A stretch of DNA of 64,000 nt from a virus. Lineage: Duplodnaviria; Caudoviricetes. Below are positions 1,510-13,510 of this stretch, in pieces (the stretch's first letter is position 1; every line of letters begins with the position of its first letter). The stretch spans positions 12,858 to 76,857 of IMG/VR virus record IMGVR_UViG_3300020577_002484; one strand, 5' to 3'. A program made the position numbers and the translations under genes. Below the pieces are notes generated by a model that worked only from the letters and a program-made list of their open reading frames with translations, was not told the origin of the DNA and ran no database searches.

Positions 1510-1701
1510 TCATCTCTTTTTGTTGTTACCAGACCTAGGATTCCAACCCTCACTTTGACCTAACTTATTAAGTTCATTTCTGGCTTTATTAACGTCTCTT
1601 TTATCCTTTTCTTCTTTTAGGCGACGTTTTAGAGTGTGTACTGAAATACCTAAGTCCCTAGCTTGCTCCTCTAGCGTTTTCTTTTGCATTGGAACCTTCA
1701 A
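1510..1701 (-). CDS. Small basic protein, possible HTH
   Basis: ARDLGISVHTLKRRL resembles a helix-turn-helix; overlaps the upstream stop codon. Confidence 0.5.
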   Translation of the reverse strand: MKVPMQKKTLEEQARDLGISVHTLKRRLKEEKDKRDVNKARNELNKLGQSEGWNPRSGNNKKR

Positions 1702-2006
1702 ACGGTATGCGTACCAAGCACACCACGACTATCCCGTTCGTTGGCTCGTTGTGCCAACGCCATCAGGGCGAGATTGAGATGGCTGATAGCTAGTTTGTTG
1801 GCTTCGTTGGCGAACTGAGTAGTCTGGAAGTGTTCCAGCCGCCCTTTGGCTGCTTCAATGATGTCAGAGACAAAGGCTCCATTTTGAGGAAGTTTGTTAG
1901 GCTCCCGGCCCAAAGGACCATTTTGCCAACCAATGGCGAATCCTGGGCCAAAGGTAGTGCCACCACTAGGTTTCCCATCAATCAGATTGTGATACTGTTC
2001 GATCAT
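1698..2006 (-). CDS. tad1: Tad1-like anti-defence nucleotide sponge
   Basis: WQNGP...SDIIEAAKGRLEHFQ..QF..EAN..A..HL..AL.....R..ER..RGVLGT matches the recalled Tad1 pattern FQKG...DLLEIVRDRL..FQ.GPF...EN..ALTH.EEAL.W...R...R..R.VLGT; start moved to the ATG at 2006 (AAAGG RBS, ATGA overlap). Confidence 0.75.
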   Translation of the reverse strand: MIEQYHNLIDGKPSGGTTFGPGFAIGWQNGPLGREPNKLPQNGAFVSDIIEAAKGRLEHFQTTQFANEANKLAISHLNLALMALAQRANERDSRGVLGTHTV

Positions 2007-2617
2007 GCTTCGCCTTTCTTTGGTTTGAACTCCCCACACCATCCGTTTTTATATGTGTGGGGGAACTCAGCGTTCAGTGGGCTGATGTAACCTTTGAATA
2101 CAACTTGAGGAGGGTATCTCCTACAGTCTCCAGCCCTGCCACCATCCCTCATCGTATTAAGGAAGAAGATACAGTCTTTACATTGACCACTCATGGTTTG
2201 TGTCCTAGCAGTTGCTAGGATCTGATCCTGATGGTCCTTCCACTCTAGGCCCACACTCTCGTGGGCACTGTCCTCTTTGGTATGGTCATAGTGTTTGCAC
2301 TCATAGGGCTTGACAGTATGGATGGTACAGAGACCATCTTTGAGGAAGGTGCAGACACCGGTTGGGTCTTCAGGGTACATACCACCCTTAACTGATTTGT
2401 CTGAAGCTGGGGCAAGGACATAAATGTTGGGAATGTCTACCCAATAGTCCACCGAGAGATGTTTCTGGAAGAACTCCTCCAAGGTCATGTTGAGATAGGC
2501 TGCGGCTTTCTCGGCCTCTCCGGGTGCGAACCAACCCGGTCTATGGGAACAGGCTGATTTACAATCATCACATTGACACTCAATAGTATCGTCGAGAACA
2601 GGAAGGGTCATGGTCAT
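2003..2617 (-). CDS. YkgJ-family Cys-cluster (Zn/Fe-chelating) protein fused to a second small Cys-rich domain
   Basis: CQCDDCKSAC...CTFL..GLCTIH..KP..CK, followed by MSGQCKDC...CRRYPP...WCGEF. Confidence 0.7.
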   Translation of the reverse strand: MTMTLPVLDDTIECQCDDCKSACSHRPGWFAPGEAEKAAAYLNMTLEEFFQKHLSVDYWVDIPNIYVLAPASDKSVKGGMYPEDPTGVCTFLKDGLCTIHTVKPYECKHYDHTKEDSAHESVGLEWKDHQDQILATARTQTMSGQCKDCIFFLNTMRDGGRAGDCRRYPPQVVFKGYISPLNAEFPHTYKNGWCGEFKPKKGEA

Positions 2618-2893: not shown

Positions 2894-2967
2894 TGGGAAG
2901 GGTGGGACTCGAACCCACAACCAACAAATTATGAGTTTGCTGCTCTGACCGATTGAGCTACCTTCCC
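2894..2967 (-). tRNA. tRNA with CAU anticodon, non-initiator (Ile2/lysidine type or elongator Met), CCA not encoded
   Basis: GGGAAGG/CCTTCCC acceptor stem, GCAAA-CTCATAA-TTTGT anticodon arm, GTGGG-TTCGAGT-CCCAC T arm; no C1:A72 mismatch and no 3GC initiator stem. Confidence 0.92.
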
Positions 2968-3040
2968 AAACCCACAACGACGCTTAAGCTATGATCGTTG
3001 TGGGGCCATCTTGACAGAGAATTCTCTGACAAGACGGTAG

Positions 3041-3132
3041 TGGAGAGGGTGGGAATCGAACCCACAACCCACACAATTAGGTTAATCGGAAGGGAACCTA
3101 ATCGTGTGTTCTACCGTTTGATTTACCTCTCC
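3041..3132 (-). ncRNA. tRNA-like RNA with a 14-bp extended anticodon arm and no canonical anticodon loop
   Basis: Perfect GGAGAGG/CCTCTCC-A acceptor stem and GTGGG-TTCGATT-CCCAC T arm, weak D arm, CACACGATTAGGTT/AACCTAATTGTGTG stem closing an 11-nt loop. Confidence 0.75.
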
Positions 3133-3278
3133 AGAGTGTAGCGTGGTACGCAACCTAAGCTGCAATAGCTTTTGATAGATACATCACGCTACATCTGACC
3201 ATCACCAAACTAACTTTTCCCTGTGAGTGTCCTCAAGACCTCACACGTAATAGGTGGGAGGTGATGATCCTCGCGAGT

Positions 3279-3929
3279 TTACTCTTTCCGAAACTCATTG
3301 AACCTCATCTCGATAGCATAAAGTGTATTACACACAAGAGACGTTGAAACACCCATTTGGTAGGCTACCTCTTTTTGAGTGTAGCCTTGCTTAAGTAGCT
3401 TGATGATCTGTAACTCACGATAGTTTTTGATTGAGCGATCCAAATCCTCAAGCAATTCTTCCGTATTACCATTAGATAACCCGATGTCAACCTCGTTAGG
3501 GTCAACGTAGGTTATCTTGACTGGACAATGATCCCCTCCCTTGCTGTTCAATAATAAGCTCCTGTTGCCAAGAATCTTATTATTCATGAACGCTACGAAG
3601 TCTTTGCACCTAGTGTGCATCTTCGCAACTGCAAAACCAGTGAAGTTATCATCGTACATTTCTTTTATCAGGTCGCAAGCCTGACAGACACCAGTTACTG
3701 CTTCTGACAGCAGATCATTACCAAACTTTGGGTAGAAGAAGGAATACTGTGAGGCCACAACGAAACAAAGTCTCAAGTGTCCTTGGACCAGATCGGACTT
3801 TGCGGTACTGTCGCCACTCTTCAATCGGAGCACCAAACTCTTAATCTGTTCTTCTGTTAGGTCTTTGATCTTGTCACTTAGAGGGCTTCTTATGCAACCC
3901 TTGCGTGACTTGCGTCTGAATAAGTACAT
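3279..3929 (-). CDS. Sigma70-family RNA polymerase sigma factor
   Basis: Region 1.2/2-like LTEEQ..L..RLKSGD..AK..LV.GHLRL..VVA.QY and region 4 HTH GYTQKEVAYQMGVS. Confidence 0.8.
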   Translation of the reverse strand: MYLFRRKSRKGCIRSPLSDKIKDLTEEQIKSLVLRLKSGDSTAKSDLVQGHLRLCFVVASQYSFFYPKFGNDLLSEAVTGVCQACDLIKEMYDDNFTGFAVAKMHTRCKDFVAFMNNKILGNRSLLLNSKGGDHCPVKITYVDPNEVDIGLSNGNTEELLEDLDRSIKNYRELQIIKLLKQGYTQKEVAYQMGVSTSLVCNTLYAIEMRFNEFRKE

Positions 3930-4577: not shown

Positions 4578-5009
4578 TTACAAGAGCACCACTTGTACTA
4601 CTTTCAGATCATTGGGTGTTCTTTCTCGACGGGAAGGGTCGTATACCTTTTGTCCGTCCCAAGCCACAGCGTGAGTGGGTTCAATGATAACACACTTGCC
4701 GTGGGACATGTACTTTTTCACCCGATCATCATTGTTGTAAACGTCATGATGTGTACTTTTGTCTGGGGTCCAAAGACGCACTTTCGCAGGGACCATCATG
4801 GCTTTGATACCAAAGCTGAACCAGCAGAAGTCGAACATTTCAGAGGTGTGAAACCCTCTTCTATTCATTGGTTCGTGCAAGTCTGGAAACCAAATCTCTG
4901 AGCCATCATGCATCAGATAATCCGTGATCTTCTTCACATCAATGTCAAGAGCAATAGCGAAAGCTGTAGGCAAACAACTCCACATATTGGGTTGAGTCTG
5001 CATTTTCAT
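4578..5009 (-). CDS. Papain-fold (C39-like) cysteine peptidase
   Basis: Q..MWSCLPTAFAIAL (Gln oxyanion hole and Cys) and HAVAWDG..VYDP (His/Asp). Confidence 0.6.
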   Translation of the reverse strand: MKMQTQPNMWSCLPTAFAIALDIDVKKITDYLMHDGSEIWFPDLHEPMNRRGFHTSEMFDFCWFSFGIKAMMVPAKVRLWTPDKSTHHDVYNNDDRVKKYMSHGKCVIIEPTHAVAWDGQKVYDPSRRERTPNDLKVVQVVLL

Positions 5010-5011
5010 AT

Positions 5012-5224
5012 TTATAGTTCCAGTAGTTCGTGGAAAGGGTTTACCTGAAGCTCCCAACACTTGATAAAGAAGGAGATTGGTAAATCATCATCTCTATATG
5101 GACTGGCTTCAACGTATGAACAAACGAAGCAATAACCAGGTGAACACTTAACTGAGCCAACACCTACATCAACGTATTCTCCATCCTCAAAGGTATCGTT
5201 ACCACAGACGGGGCATGTTAGCAT
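5012..5224 (-). CDS. Small zinc-ribbon protein
   Basis: MLTCPVCG...CFVCSY; the upstream extension in the ORF track overlaps the NYN gene. Confidence 0.6.
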   Translation of the reverse strand: MLTCPVCGNDTFEDGEYVDVGVGSVKCSPGYCFVCSYVEASPYRDDDLPISFFIKCWELQVNPFHELLEL

Positions 5225-5820: not shown

Positions 5821-8800
5821 CTACCCTACGTTAATCTGACACTGTGGTCCATCACAGTAGAGTTCAGCTTCCGGGTTTGAATTTGTTAGTTCACTCCAGT
5901 CGATAGGTTGTATCTGTTTGATACGGTGGTTATATTCTTCTTCTGTGATACCCTCTTCAGGCATTTGCTGGTAAACACCAGCAGCCGTATGAGGCAACAA
6001 AGAAACAGACTTGGTGAGAGGGGCAATTGAAGACAACACATTCTCAATGTCATCTTCCTCGTGTTTGATATTGTAGGTATACAACTTGACATCGACAGGG
6101 GTTCGAGTCTCGTTACGAGTTACCTTAATCTTGTGAAAAGAGTTCTCACTCTCATGCTCGATCTCATCGAAATCGAATCCATAGTCGTGAGCAATCTTTT
6201 TCGCAGATTGGAGGGTATCAGCAGTAAAAAGGTGTTTTACCAATACCCACTTAGGCTTGAAGTATAAAGTGTTTGATACGGCGTTATCCGCCCACTCTCT
6301 CTGAAGAACAATGATGTTATTTGATTGTTCCCAAACAGTAACTTCCTCCGCTGGCTTGGCTGGGCCTTGGATGATTGGGAACTCGAAAACATAAGTTCTC
6401 GTCGGATCAGTAACATCAGGTTCATGCGGAACTCCAGCCTTCACCAACAGTTTGAAGATAGGCTGGAACGTGGCGACTCTGACTCTGCGAACCGTCCACT
6501 TGAACGTAGGATAACCAGCACCTGAAGTCTTGCCAGCCAGTTTTGGTGTAGTACCACCTGGCTTGCAAGTTGTCTTACGAATAGCCTCAGGAACTCCGGC
6601 CTCTCCATTGGCCCAACGGTTCGTGTCACAAACAACCTCGTAACCTTTACGCAACAATGCAACAACCTTGTTCAACTCCGAGTTGTGTTTCCAACCTGTG
6701 AAGTCGACCAAGGACACGCCGATTCGGCGATTCTTGGCGACAACCTTGTTTGTAGACTTCCTGTGCGTCGGTAGCAGCGACACTGTTGAGCAGTAGAAGG
6801 TAGCATACTCACAAGCTTTGAGCCACTGTGCATCATTGTTGCAACGTGTGGGCAAAGTTTCAGCCAGATTACACACTTCACGATGCTCAAGTGGTATTTC
6901 ACCACAGTTAGAAACATTGCATCCTTGGGCCCAGAAAGTATGACTCGGACCATTGACAGTAATGTCCCAAGTCTCTTCCTCGCCAAGATACTCCTCAGAC
7001 AAAATCTCATAAGTCAATTTTGACTTGTTGTTTTTACCAGTACCATTTACAATTTTCTTGAGCTTTTCAGTTTTGTAGTTCTGAATGAACCCAATGTATT
7101 TGTAGAACACATCTCTGTCTGTAGAGATTTGAAGATTCCAAGAGTCTCGGCAAAGATAGGTACCATTACCAAACTCAATAATCTTACCTTCTTCCTTGGT
7201 ATAGTATGATCTGATCCCTAAGGCGGACAGCATCATCTGAGCAGCTTCAATCACTTTGAATGATGAAGCCTTCAGACATACTCTACCACGAATCACTGAA
7301 CCATTGGCAGAATACAAACCACGAAGGAACCCAGCCATCTTGGATGGGTTACAAAGGTAGAACCTTCCATCAATAGTCCGTTCATAGGTAAGCGGCAGCC
7401 TATGGATAGTAGTCTTAACCTTGTGACAGTAGTCCTTCGAGTAGGATTCACCAATCAGGTGTGCCACCTCACTTAAGAAGTAGTCATGGTCATTGGCACC
7501 AATGTTTAGGCAGACATGGTTATTCTCTTGAGATCCATCCCCAACCACAAGACCGTCCATAATATCTTGAGGGTCAAGCTGATCGGTAGCAATACCGGCT
7601 GGGCCTTCCAGAACATCAATTCCAAAGGCATCCTTAACTTCAACCTTCATACCTTCACAAACTACTCTATGGTTAGCTGTCCCATAGAATACATTTGCGT
7701 TGGTCCTATAGGCAAAGACAGGGTTGACACCTGTTGACCACTTTTTCTCAATAGTAACCCATCCATCTTCTGACCAAATCTTGGAGCCAACGTCAACCTG
7801 ATCAAAGGTAGTAATACCATTTGGAGTTAGTACCTTTGATGACGCTCTTAGGCAAGGGTTCATACCAGTGGCATAGTCCTTCCTTGCATATTCTGTCTTA
7901 CCAATGCGTCCCAAAGGGAGGTTCATCGAATTGATAAAGCCGGGTTCACCATTCTTAATCACTCTACGAGCGATCTCACCCAACTGTTGAAAATCCTCAG
8001 GTTCTTCAAGCTTGACAGAATTGTTACTCATGTAACCAACTTCTGCACGGTGTGGGAACGTCGTGTAATCCTTGAGATTCATAAAGGTCTCATCATAGAT
8101 GCTACCACTAAGGATCTCAGCACTACGTCTTACGTTCCCAGATACCACGCAACAGCCTGTGGCATTCATAATGTCAGACTTGAGCAAGATGGTATCATAG
8201 TATGGATCTTCCAGATACATACGCATGTACTTGTCAATCCTATTATGAAGTTCAATCAAGGGTCCGGGACCAGAAGCGACCCCGCCAAATCCTTTGATAG
8301 GTTCACCCTCAGGTCTGATCTCATCATAGATGAATCGTGGTCGTGAGCAACCCTTGGTAAGATAAGACTCAATAAGAGACTTAGTAGAGTCGCACCACCC
8401 TTCGCGAGAGTCTTCGACGACAAAGTCTCGTCCATTGCTCTTTGGTGAGAATACCTCAAGACCGGATCTGAGTGGTTGGGCACCAACTCCAACTCCATTC
8501 ATTAAGCAGTCCATGGCCCAATGGATGTCGTCACCAATCACATCAGTGAGATTGGTGAAAGCACAATTGTACAGAGCCATCGCACCACGTTGATAAACGA
8601 ACTCTGTTCCCATAGCCCACAGTCCACGTCCCGGCGGGAGCCAATACATATTGAACATGGAAATGGCAAAACCCAAAGCATAATGCTGCCACTGAAAGTC
8701 ATCCCAGAACAGATGATTCTTGATGTAATGGTCCTTACGGATGGACATTACACCTTCAGTAACACGAATTACACAATCAGCCCACGACTCCATCTTACCA

Positions 8801-8931
8801 TTTAGCATCATCCTTGAATAGTGTTTATAGAAGATAAATTCGCTGAACTGACCATACCCGAAGTTCGCGGACATGGAACGAATTGTATCTTTAGTTTGTT
8901 CTGCAAGCACAAACCTCTGCGTTACATACAT
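5821..8931 (-). CDS. nrdJ: Class II (adenosylcobalamin-dependent, monomeric type) ribonucleotide reductase with an intein
   Basis: PPGRGLW, LYNCAF, GNVRRSAE, NP-[intein]-CGEIPL, VCNLAE, TCKPGGT, C-terminal CDGPQC. Confidence 0.92.
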   Translation of the reverse strand: MYVTQRFVLAEQTKDTIRSMSANFGYGQFSEFIFYKHYSRMMLNGKMESWADCVIRVTEGVMSIRKDHYIKNHLFWDDFQWQHYALGFAISMFNMYWLPPGRGLWAMGTEFVYQRGAMALYNCAFTNLTDVIGDDIHWAMDCLMNGVGVGAQPLRSGLEVFSPKSNGRDFVVEDSREGWCDSTKSLIESYLTKGCSRPRFIYDEIRPEGEPIKGFGGVASGPGPLIELHNRIDKYMRMYLEDPYYDTILLKSDIMNATGCCVVSGNVRRSAEILSGSIYDETFMNLKDYTTFPHRAEVGYMSNNSVKLEEPEDFQQLGEIARRVIKNGEPGFINSMNLPLGRIGKTEYARKDYATGMNPCLRASSKVLTPNGITTFDQVDVGSKIWSEDGWVTIEKKWSTGVNPVFAYRTNANVFYGTANHRVVCEGMKVEVKDAFGIDVLEGPAGIATDQLDPQDIMDGLVVGDGSQENNHVCLNIGANDHDYFLSEVAHLIGESYSKDYCHKVKTTIHRLPLTYERTIDGRFYLCNPSKMAGFLRGLYSANGSVIRGRVCLKASSFKVIEAAQMMLSALGIRSYYTKEEGKIIEFGNGTYLCRDSWNLQISTDRDVFYKYIGFIQNYKTEKLKKIVNGTGKNNKSKLTYEILSEEYLGEEETWDITVNGPSHTFWAQGCNVSNCGEIPLEHREVCNLAETLPTRCNNDAQWLKACEYATFYCSTVSLLPTHRKSTNKVVAKNRRIGVSLVDFTGWKHNSELNKVVALLRKGYEVVCDTNRWANGEAGVPEAIRKTTCKPGGTTPKLAGKTSGAGYPTFKWTVRRVRVATFQPIFKLLVKAGVPHEPDVTDPTRTYVFEFPIIQGPAKPAEEVTVWEQSNNIIVLQREWADNAVSNTLYFKPKWVLVKHLFTADTLQSAKKIAHDYGFDFDEIEHESENSFHKIKVTRNETRTPVDVKLYTYNIKHEEDDIENVLSSIAPLTKSVSLLPHTAAGVYQQMPEEGITEEEYNHRIKQIQPIDWSELTNSNPEAELYCDGPQCQINVG
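6907..7854 (-). mobile_element. Intein (316 aa) with LAGLIDADG homing endonuclease, inserted just before the thiyl-radical Cys
   Basis: Starts CLRASSKVLTPNG, ends HTFWAQGCNVSN followed by C+1; LAGLIDADG-like IMDGLVVGDG and FLRGLYSANG. Confidence 0.9.
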
Positions 8932-12567: not shown

Positions 12568-13510
12568 CGCTTGTGAGTTCCTTGAGTCTGATGGCACGAT
12601 CGCGGATTTCCTGCGGCATCTTCCACTCTCTACCGAACCCCTCTGCGTAGGATTCGATCTCCTCAAGAAGTTCAAACGTGTTCACATGACCGGCCACCCA
12701 ACCAAGGACTCTAGCTTCCAAGCAAGGTCCAACAGCCTCCATGATCATGTCTTGAATGGAATAAATCTCATTCAATGATCGTATCTTGTTAGAGAGTGGG
12801 TTAGACACCTTAGCTTCAGAAATCTTCTTGGCCTTACGGTTGATGGTAGACTCACCGCGAGCTTTCGATTCCTTCAAACAACGGTAGGTTGCGTAAAGGT
12901 CTTCTTTGACCCCAACAAGAGGGAGCAGGGTTTTGGCTTGCTCAAAGGTGATCGTACCAATTGACAACTCATCCTGAATGTCTTGTGGCAACTGAAGAAT
13001 GTCGATTCTGTCCTTGACCCAAGAGCCAGAGAAACCTACCATCTTACCGATGGAAACGTAGTCCATTCCAAGAACTCTAAACCTTTTCATGAACTCGGCA
13101 ATCTTGATCAGACTAATATCCTTACGGTGGATATTCTCTGCCAAGTTGTGACGCATGGCATCAAGTTCTGAAAGTCCAGTTCTGATGGATGCACGAATAG
13201 TGGGGAGGCCGAGGTGCTTGCAGGCTGTATATCGTCTGTGGCCCACAACGATCTTATATTTGTACTTACCGTTCGGGTCATTGAACGGCTGGACAAGGAT
13301 GGCTTGCAACAGGCCATCCCTCTTAATCTCTGCCATCAGATCCATCACATCAAACTTGGTAATGTCACCACGACAATTGAAACTCCCGTCGCAGAAGATT
13401 TCTGCAATAGGGAGTTCCTGTTCAGTAATGTGGTCACCATTATTGAATGTGACAGGTTCAAGCTCCCGCTTGAACTCATCAGATACTTCTTGTTGAGTGT
13501 ACTCAGACAT
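12551..13510 (-). CDS. ParB/Spo0J-like protein 1 (CTPase fold plus HTH)
   Basis: NCR...DLMAEIKRDGLLQAILV, VVGHRRYTAC, LAENIHRKDI, HTH IGKMVGFSGSWV. Confidence 0.85.
   Translation of the reverse strand: MSEYTQQEVSDEFKRELEPVTFNNGDHITEQELPIAEIFCDGSFNCRGDITKFDVMDLMAEIKRDGLLQAILVQPFNDPNGKYKYKIVVGHRRYTACKHLGLPTIRASIRTGLSELDAMRHNLAENIHRKDISLIKIAEFMKRFRVLGMDYVSIGKMVGFSGSWVKDRIDILQLPQDIQDELSIGTITFEQAKTLLPLVGVKEDLYATYRCLKESKARGESTINRKAKKISEAKVSNPLSNKIRSLNEIYSIQDMIMEAVGPCLEARVLGWVAGHVNTFELLEEIESYAEGFGREWKMPQEIRDRAIRLKELTSDEQSE

Follow-up and report, generated by a model that had tools for sequence, protein, structure and literature searches.

The tRNA-shaped gene described here belongs to an uncultivated tailed phage from IMG/VR, whose source record comprises 76,857 bp and is estimated to be 82% complete. 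The window analysed is a stretch of 64,000 nucleotides (positions 12,858 to 76,857 of record IMGVR_UViG_3300020577_002484), and coordinates without a prefix refer to it. The phage encodes terminase, portal, major head protein, a family A DNA polymerase (PolA), helicase, primase, and two ParB-like proteins, along with an NYN-domain protein and a class II ribonucleotide reductase with a LAGLIDADG-type insert. Cultured phages come no closer than about 25% to its PolA. The reductase (5821-8931, minus strand) is about 330 residues longer than those of relatives, has the LAGLIDADG-type domain inside, and probably carries an intein. There are three tRNA-family matches in the 76.9-kb record, namely two true tRNAs and the 92-nt element considered here, which is located 146 nt downstream of a sigma-70-family gene and 73 nt upstream of tRNA-Met.

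The sigma-type gene (ORF 3279-3929, minus strand, 216 aa) is assigned to its family by language-model and structure look-alikes. Homologues with 21-35% identity were recovered by tblastn in 15 related phage loci, and a word-based protein search returned no word-sharing relative. For another flanking gene, of 204 aa, the best relative is 50% identical, and a 745-aa ORF has no usable look-alike. Between the two tRNAs, about 1 kb downstream of the element, ORF 1698-2042 (minus strand, 114 aa) shares 37% identity over 75 residues (E = 1e-11) with a relative's Acb2/Tad1-hairpin-domain protein; judged from this similarity, it is likely a signal-sponge anti-defence gene. The whole intergenic RNA around the element (434 nt) is unusually structured (z = -6.6). 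It holds four spacer hairpin domains flanking the element, which may be processing or termination signals, and one of them forms an almost perfect palindrome with GAATTC at its centre. Neither a sigma-70-type promoter nor a terminator signal is conspicuous.

Read on the minus strand from 3132 to 3041, the element is GGAGAGG-UA-AAUC-AAACGGUA-GAAC-A-[CACGAUUAGGUU-CCCUUCCGAUU-AACCUAAUUGUG]-UGGGUU-GUGGG-UUCGAUU-CCCAC-CCUCUCC-A, and its parts are listed in Table 1. All seven pairs of the acceptor stem are Watson-Crick, the preceding base (-1) is U, and CCA is not encoded at the 3' end. Instead of the usual D stem of 3-4 bp with G10, the element has A at position 10 and pairs only U12-A23 and C13-G22, leaving 10/25 (A, C) and 11/24 (A, A) unpaired. 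The D arm nevertheless keeps U8, A14, A15, G18, G19, and A21; the remaining elbow and core nucleotides, namely U48 as partner of A15, G46, U54, U55, C56, A58, and G53-C61, are also present. The tertiary contacts that can be read from the sequence are all compatible (U8-A14, A15-U48, G18/G19 with U55/C56, A9 with U12-A23, C13-G22 with G46, U54-A58, and G53-C61), with 10-25-45 as the sole exception. The canonical anticodon arm (5-bp stem, 7-nt loop, U33, and purine 37) is replaced by an uninterrupted 14-bp helix, from C25-G63 to U38-A50 with the single wobble G30-U58, and an 11-nt loop. Compared with the usual anticodon stem, there are two more pairs above 27-43, formed by C25 and A26 with G and U of the variable region, and seven more below 31-39. 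The inner part of the loop, CUUCCGA, is shaped as a 7-nt anticodon loop with a C/U mismatch on each side. Within the hairpin, the 6-nt direct repeat CGAUUA occurs at positions 29-34 and 45-50.

Table 1. Coordinates of the element, its parts and neighbours, and of Ro60-linked Y-arm tRNAs at other loci
Feature	Position	Strand	Basis
tRNA-shaped gene (the element), 92 nt	3041..3132	-	RF00005 score, fold z, ARAGORN intron mode
Acceptor stem 5' strand GGAGAGG, RNA positions 1-7	3126..3132	-	sequence; pair probabilities 0.98-1.0
U8 A9 and reduced D arm AAUC-AAACGGUA-GAAC	3109..3125	-	sequence
14-bp helix 5' strand CACACGAUUAGGUU, RNA positions 25-38	3095..3108	-	fold
Terminal loop CCCUUCCGAUU, 11 nt, RNA positions 39-49	3084..3094	-	fold; sequence
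14-bp helix 3' strand AACCUAAUUGUGUG, RNA positions 50-63	3070..3083	-	fold
18 nt A34-A51, AGGUUCCCUUCCGAUUAA	3082..3099	-	removal gives loop UU-CCU-AA, 74-nt cloverleaf
T arm GUGGG-UUCGAUU-CCCAC, perfect (5/5 pairs)	3049..3065	-	sequence, fold
Acceptor stem 3' strand CCUCUCC and discriminator A73	3041..3048	-	sequence
tRNA-Met/Ile2(CAU), true tRNA, closest relative of the element	2894..2967	-	RF00005 75.8 bits
Two strong spacer hairpins (3006-3037, 2971-3004), element to tRNA-Met	2971..3037	-	folding
Two structured domains (3197-3269, 3133-3196), sigma-factor gene to element	3133..3269	-	folding
Y-arm tRNA examples (among L141-L220)	L144:2870-2991; L216:3146-3270, 3274-3397; L213:5608-6220		
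Further Y-arm tRNAs	L055:276-405, 476-596; L100:15439-15562		

The predicted fold of the element is far more stable than expected by chance. Its minimum free energy in RNAfold, -37.3 kcal/mol, lies below the -23.2 +/- 3.3 of dinucleotide shuffles (z = -4.2), and none of the 200 shuffles was equally stable; 13 of the 14 helix pairs have a probability of at least 0.98. An alternative cloverleaf, in which AAUC pairs with GAUU at 30-33, is less stable than the long helix by 15.6 kcal/mol. The Rfam tRNA model RF00005 aligns end to end at 38.2 bits, above its gathering score of 29, which places the element in the tRNA family. Default ARAGORN reports only tRNA-Arg(UCU) at 1431-1505 and tRNA-Met(CAU) at 2893-2967 in the window and no gene at the element, as the first-pass annotation had expected of tRNA finders. 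In intron mode, the element is called as a tRNA with an 18-nt insert placed one base further on than A34-A51; the exact limits of the insert are ambiguous, as the region is palindromic. When A34-A51 is removed, tRNA-Arg(cct) is called. As transcribed, the element cannot decode, since its arm extends 7 bp beyond the lower end of a normal stem and lacks a 7-nt loop. In this respect the first-pass annotation was right, and its anatomy (acceptor stem, discriminator A, T arm, 14-bp stem with one G-U, and loop) agrees throughout with sequence and fold. It had also proposed pairing of GAUU in the loop with AAUC of the D arm; the sequences would permit this, but it is geometrically unlikely, as the two should lie at opposite ends of a rigid 14-bp helix.

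The affinity to the neighbouring tRNA-CAU noted in the first-pass annotation is borne out by comparison. Without the 18 nt, the resulting 74-mer is 80% identical to tRNA-CAU, whereas identity to 215 other phage tRNAs reaches at most 77% (median 58%). In the 3' halves, identity is 91% over 34 nt, the T stem GUGGG/CCCAC is the same in both, and CUA follows each gene. When the two are compared, pairs 3-70, 4-69, 27-43, 28-42, and 29-41 are changed on both sides with pairing kept, which indicates that the acceptor and anticodon helices were under selection during divergence. Pair 30-40 has become G-U, and two differences in the D stem disrupt pairing. The compensating changes could all have arisen in the tRNA-CAU lineage, or before the insertion, and no outgroup tRNA-CAU close enough to place them in one lineage was found. 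Most likely, the element originated as a phage tRNA copy, with the adjacent tRNA-CAU as its nearest relative. Structure, tRNA kinship, and genomic setting are matters of direct observation. The elbow and 3' end are both intact and may be maintained by selection, as the first-pass annotation claimed.

The element is currently a singleton among the viral, metagenome, genome, and phage collections searched. No homologue was found in IMG/VR with three exact sub-patterns and one two-anchor pattern. A two-anchor pattern likewise retrieved no homologue from JGI metagenomes, only two ordinary tRNAs, one of which (L057) has the D arm GTTC-AAACGGTA-GAAC where the element has AAUC-AAACGGUA-GAAC. A blastn search of 50,697 phage records gave matches to the T arm and acceptor portion alone. 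These last 25 nt (T arm and acceptor 3' strand) are identical in tRNA-Phe(GAA) genes of six phage contigs; in IMG/VR, the 25-mer leads to tRNA-Phe genes, one tRNA-Ala (L003), and one odd tRNA-like sequence (L007). The latter, L007:2132-2230 (99 nt), combines the element's T arm and 3' acceptor strand with G3-U70 and a long, irregular hairpin that precedes the T arm, and is called neither by ARAGORN nor by Rfam at gathering score. The 19-mer of the distal hairpin gave one non-repeated chance match in 596 Gb of GTDB prokaryote genomes searched for exact matches only, which gives no support to a CRISPR-repeat mimic acting as an RNA anti-CRISPR. A mobile repeated hairpin was rejected, the 25-nt hairpin being present once in the window. 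No tRNA genes are present on contigs that carry homologues of the 204-aa gene. PolA relatives at 69% identity occur only on contigs too short to cover the element region, and in those at 43-59% the PolA-RNR-NYN order is kept with no tRNA-like gene at the corresponding site.

Several other odd tRNA-like genes were encountered during these searches. Two of them, L064:6216-6280 and L073:6153-6224, belong to PolA-related phages; one is about 65 nt long, with acceptor, D, and T arms and a 3-bp mini-hairpin at the site of the anticodon arm, and the other is 72 nt long, with a 6-bp stem and 5-nt loop replacing that arm. Another such gene, elongated to 99 nt, lies in a PolA relative (L129:17100-17261), where another T arm and a GGGUUAUC motif precede it. 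It comes about 1 kb after that phage's homologue of window ORF 4578-5060 and corresponds to the element in position but not in sequence. L113:9504-9630 (127 nt) has a 7-bp acceptor-like closing stem and two complete T arms, and may consist of two interleaved tRNA-like units.

A larger group of elongated tRNA-shaped genes is linked to Ro60. Among the PolA-related loci, 4 of 84 carry a Ro60/TROVE gene with such genes just upstream. In 80 IMG/VR Ro60 loci, elongated candidates (at least 95 nt) number 63 on the gene strand and 3 on the other, and about 50 of the elongated Ro60-linked candidates look tRNA-shaped, spread over 35 loci. They lie mostly upstream on the same strand, measure 95-150 nt, and have an open acceptor, canonical D and T arms, and a long arm. 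Short members of 95-97 nt also occur (L141:2376-2470, equal to L055:1155-1249, and L145:3241-3337); in these, the small extra hairpin preceding the T arm is missing, which gives the family its wide size range. Alignment of 37 of the RNAs reveals the conserved core ACUUGCC-loop-GGNCGAA followed by GUUAUC, with compensating changes at 18 of 20 model pairs. The core corresponds to the Rsr-binding motif GNCGAAN0-1G described by Chen et al. (2014, PMC4201824) for tRNA-like Y RNAs bound by Ro60. The Ro60-linked RNAs are YrlA-like RNAs in native tRNA topology, and the Rfam YrlA model does not detect these tRNA-shaped genes at its gathering score. Clearly, phages of this lineage use tRNA bodies with non-decoding arms. 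In the window itself, an apparent YrlA match at 2915-3084 was discarded, as it spans two adjacent genes and scores 36.8 bits against 69.

The preferred reading of the element, held tentatively and with somewhat less than even confidence, is a non-decoding mimic RNA that is processed like a tRNA. The 18 extra nucleotides would pair with former anticodon-loop bases, and C25 and A26 with the variable region, to give a 14-bp rod with an 11-nt C/U-rich loop. Maturation of tRNA ends by RNase P and subsequent steps is favoured by A73, by the U at -1, and by the undamaged elbow and acceptor/T minihelix. The element would be co-transcribed with tRNA-Met from the structured spacer downstream of the sigma-factor gene, excised by RNase P with the help of its own U at -1, minihelix, and elbow, and then trimmed at the 3' end and provided with CCA. 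The resulting RNA would be stable, like engineered 'tRNA scaffold' RNAs. Since the rod holds the loop about 7 bp further from the elbow than would let it reach the decoding centre, any activity must come from the tRNA body, the loop, or both. As a mimic or decoy, the body would bind proteins that recognise the tRNA elbow and acceptor end. We infer expression, processing, and any decoy, sponge, or handle role from these features. According to the first-pass annotation, the element may act as a decoy for anticodon nucleases, a ligand of tRNA-sensing proteins, an aminoacyl carrier, or an SD-targeting regulator. Targeting of many phage mRNAs by the loop was rejected: the window has 10 sites for GGAAGGG, the exact complement of the loop core, where 8.5 would be expected, which is no enrichment, and just one of them is on the coding strand.

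This reading of a non-decoding mimic is favoured by the fold above chance, the tRNA-family score, the compatible contacts, the five compensated stem pairs in the comparison with tRNA-CAU, the structured spacer, and the nearby Tad1/Acb2-like gene. By analogy, it is also favoured by the working RNAs of related phages with tRNA bodies and non-decoding arms and by the stable T4 rnaC. Moreover, the insert pairs exactly with the flanking loop bases, as an unselected, untemplated 18-mer rarely would (under 1% by our own estimate). Against it count the singleton status, the empty site in syntenic relatives, the two uncompensated D-stem mismatches, the uncertain lineage and timing of the compensating changes, and the absence of a partner protein, with no Ro60/TROVE (PF05731) and no TerD in the record. 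A more specific version is a natural 'tRNA scaffold', in which the tRNA body would serve as a processing and stability cassette, either for a sponge of a tRNA-sensing or tRNA-cutting host protein or for delivery of the loop. As a sponge, the element would parallel, in the form of RNA, the Tad1/Acb2-type sponge whose gene lies about 1 kb downstream; the scaffold version as a whole is unlikely.

The close rival to a working tRNA mimic is a recently broken tRNA gene, which is held with only slightly less confidence. According to this alternative, an 18-nt palindrome-forming insertion, arising for example from a template-switch replication error, entered the anticodon loop (UU-CCU-AA or similar), decay of the D stem began, and the gene is functionless. 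It is a serious possibility that nonetheless falls short of being likely. A single insertion plus D-stem decay accounts for everything: the 74-nt cloverleaf that ARAGORN calls tRNA-Arg(cct) once the 18 nt are out, the loss of G10-C25 and of pair 11-24 without compensation, the occurrence on one contig alone, and the CGAUUA direct repeat, such as duplication or slippage could leave. However, decay is confined to the D stem, with perfect acceptor stem, T arm, T loop, and D-loop contacts, and dead DNA is usually purged from phage genomes, though 92 nt are cheap. The perfect pairing of the insertion with its flanks also counts somewhat against a disabled gene, but a recent templated insertion would look identical. 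The first-pass annotation had stated that the long stem was not random decay; this is not established, given a singleton with two uncompensated D-stem mismatches whose whole shape an 18-nt insertion explains. Alternatively, the 18 nt could be a novel kind of short tRNA intron, excised in the bacterial host by an unknown route, whose removal would leave a working tRNA, most plausibly Arg CCU, complementing tRNA-Arg(UCU) and tRNA-CAU. ARAGORN accepts the element in intron mode, and excision between 33 and 34 would yield Y32-U33-CCU-A37-A38 in a canonical cloverleaf. That 'canonical' loop depends solely on two basal U-A pairs of the extension, with a chance of about 1 in 8, and excision at the canonical 37/38 intron position would leave a non-canonical loop. 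Use of AGA (15.1 per 1000 codons) by the phage is heavy and that of AGG (7.3 per 1000) moderate to heavy, and 'enigmatic' short introns are described in Lak megaphage tRNAs (bioRxiv 10.1101/356790). On the other hand, the helix is uninterrupted and has no bulge-helix-bulge motif, 18 nt is far below the size of a group I intron, and no splicing endonuclease, RtcB, or RNA ligase (PF01974, PF01139, PF09414) is encoded in the 76.9-kb record, which is 82% complete. Splicing is an improbable explanation. No bacterial pathway is known by which such tRNA inserts could be removed.

Two further explanations invoke known RNA classes with tRNA-like heads. The element could be a miniature Y-RNA-type handle, with a tRNA head and an arm docking a host Ro60-like protein. 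It shares the overall design of the Ro60-linked RNAs (open acceptor, T arm, and long arm at the anticodon position), its loop CUU...CCGA recalls ACUUGCC-loop-GGNCGAA, and GAUUAAC resembles GUUAUC. Yet the family model R1 gives 43.3 bits for the element, next to 49.3 for tRNA-Met and 42.9 for tRNA-Arg, within the range of ordinary tRNAs (26-56) and far below that of true members (82-105). The GNCGAAN0-1G motif is absent, the loop reading UCCGAUU, as are the distal mini-hairpin, internal loop, and GUUAUC, and the record has no TROVE or TerD gene. Membership of the Y-arm family is ruled out by the R1 score together with the missing motif, hairpin, GUUAUC, and Ro60, and the broader idea of a docking handle is very doubtful. 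Similarly, a tmRNA-like tRNA domain, acting as a mini-tmRNA or SmpB decoy, finds some resemblance in a local Rfam tmRNA alignment covering the acceptor stem, T arm, and long helix with 274 model positions skipped. This alignment scores 28.3 bits, below the gathering score of 47; moreover, pair 3-70 is A-U and not the G-U alanine identity pair, a tag reading frame is absent, and ARAGORN reports no tmRNA. The tmRNA explanation is extremely improbable.

Overall, the interpretation in the first-pass annotation is partly supported, and the element is a tRNA-derived gene, non-decoding as transcribed. Phage tRNA clusters matter in conflict with tRNA-cutting host defences. If expressed and stable, the element would be the simplest natural tRNA body bearing only a plain double-stranded rod and a short loop, and it would offer a clean test of which tRNA-binding proteins an anticodon-less mimic engages. 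If it is a freshly broken gene, it would be an ordinary by-product of phage tRNA gene turnover.

The element resembles kinds of genes already seen in phage tRNA clusters, namely T4 rnaC, the Lak tRNA inserts, and the Y-arm tRNAs. T4 species 1 RNA (rnaC) is likewise a small, non-coding, non-decoding gene in a phage tRNA cluster with a canonical T arm (CCGGG-UUCGAAU-CCCGG), and has long extra helices and a fold z of -4.6. Unlike the element, and as compared by fold, it is 139 nt long with several helices and no simple cloverleaf, and the two share no sequence. No function is known for T4 rnaC. In Bacillus cereus, the pseudo-tRNA 'tRNA-Other' has an abnormal anticodon arm and acts outside decoding; in contrast to the element, it is chromosomal, of normal length, and poorly aminoacylated, with no long helix. 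Lak megaphage tRNA genes have anticodon-region inserts that are recognised in intron mode alone (Devoto et al., bioRxiv 10.1101/356790). Like the element, these genes exceed the length that bacterial tRNA finders accept, and no mechanism is known for them; their inserts are conserved in several genomes and in some cases are long enough to hold a tRNA-like fold, whereas the element is a singleton with an 18-nt insert and a perfect helix. In 'tRNA scaffold' RNAs (Ponchon and Dardel; PMC3753655), a foreign hairpin replaces the anticodon stem-loop, and the products undergo tRNA-like processing and are stable in E. coli. The architecture is the same as that of the element, but the scaffold is a laboratory construct and speaks to feasibility only. 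Finally, Y-arm tRNAs and YrlA (RF02553) have in common with the element a tRNA-like body, with D arm, T arm, and acceptor, and a long non-decoding arm at the anticodon position.
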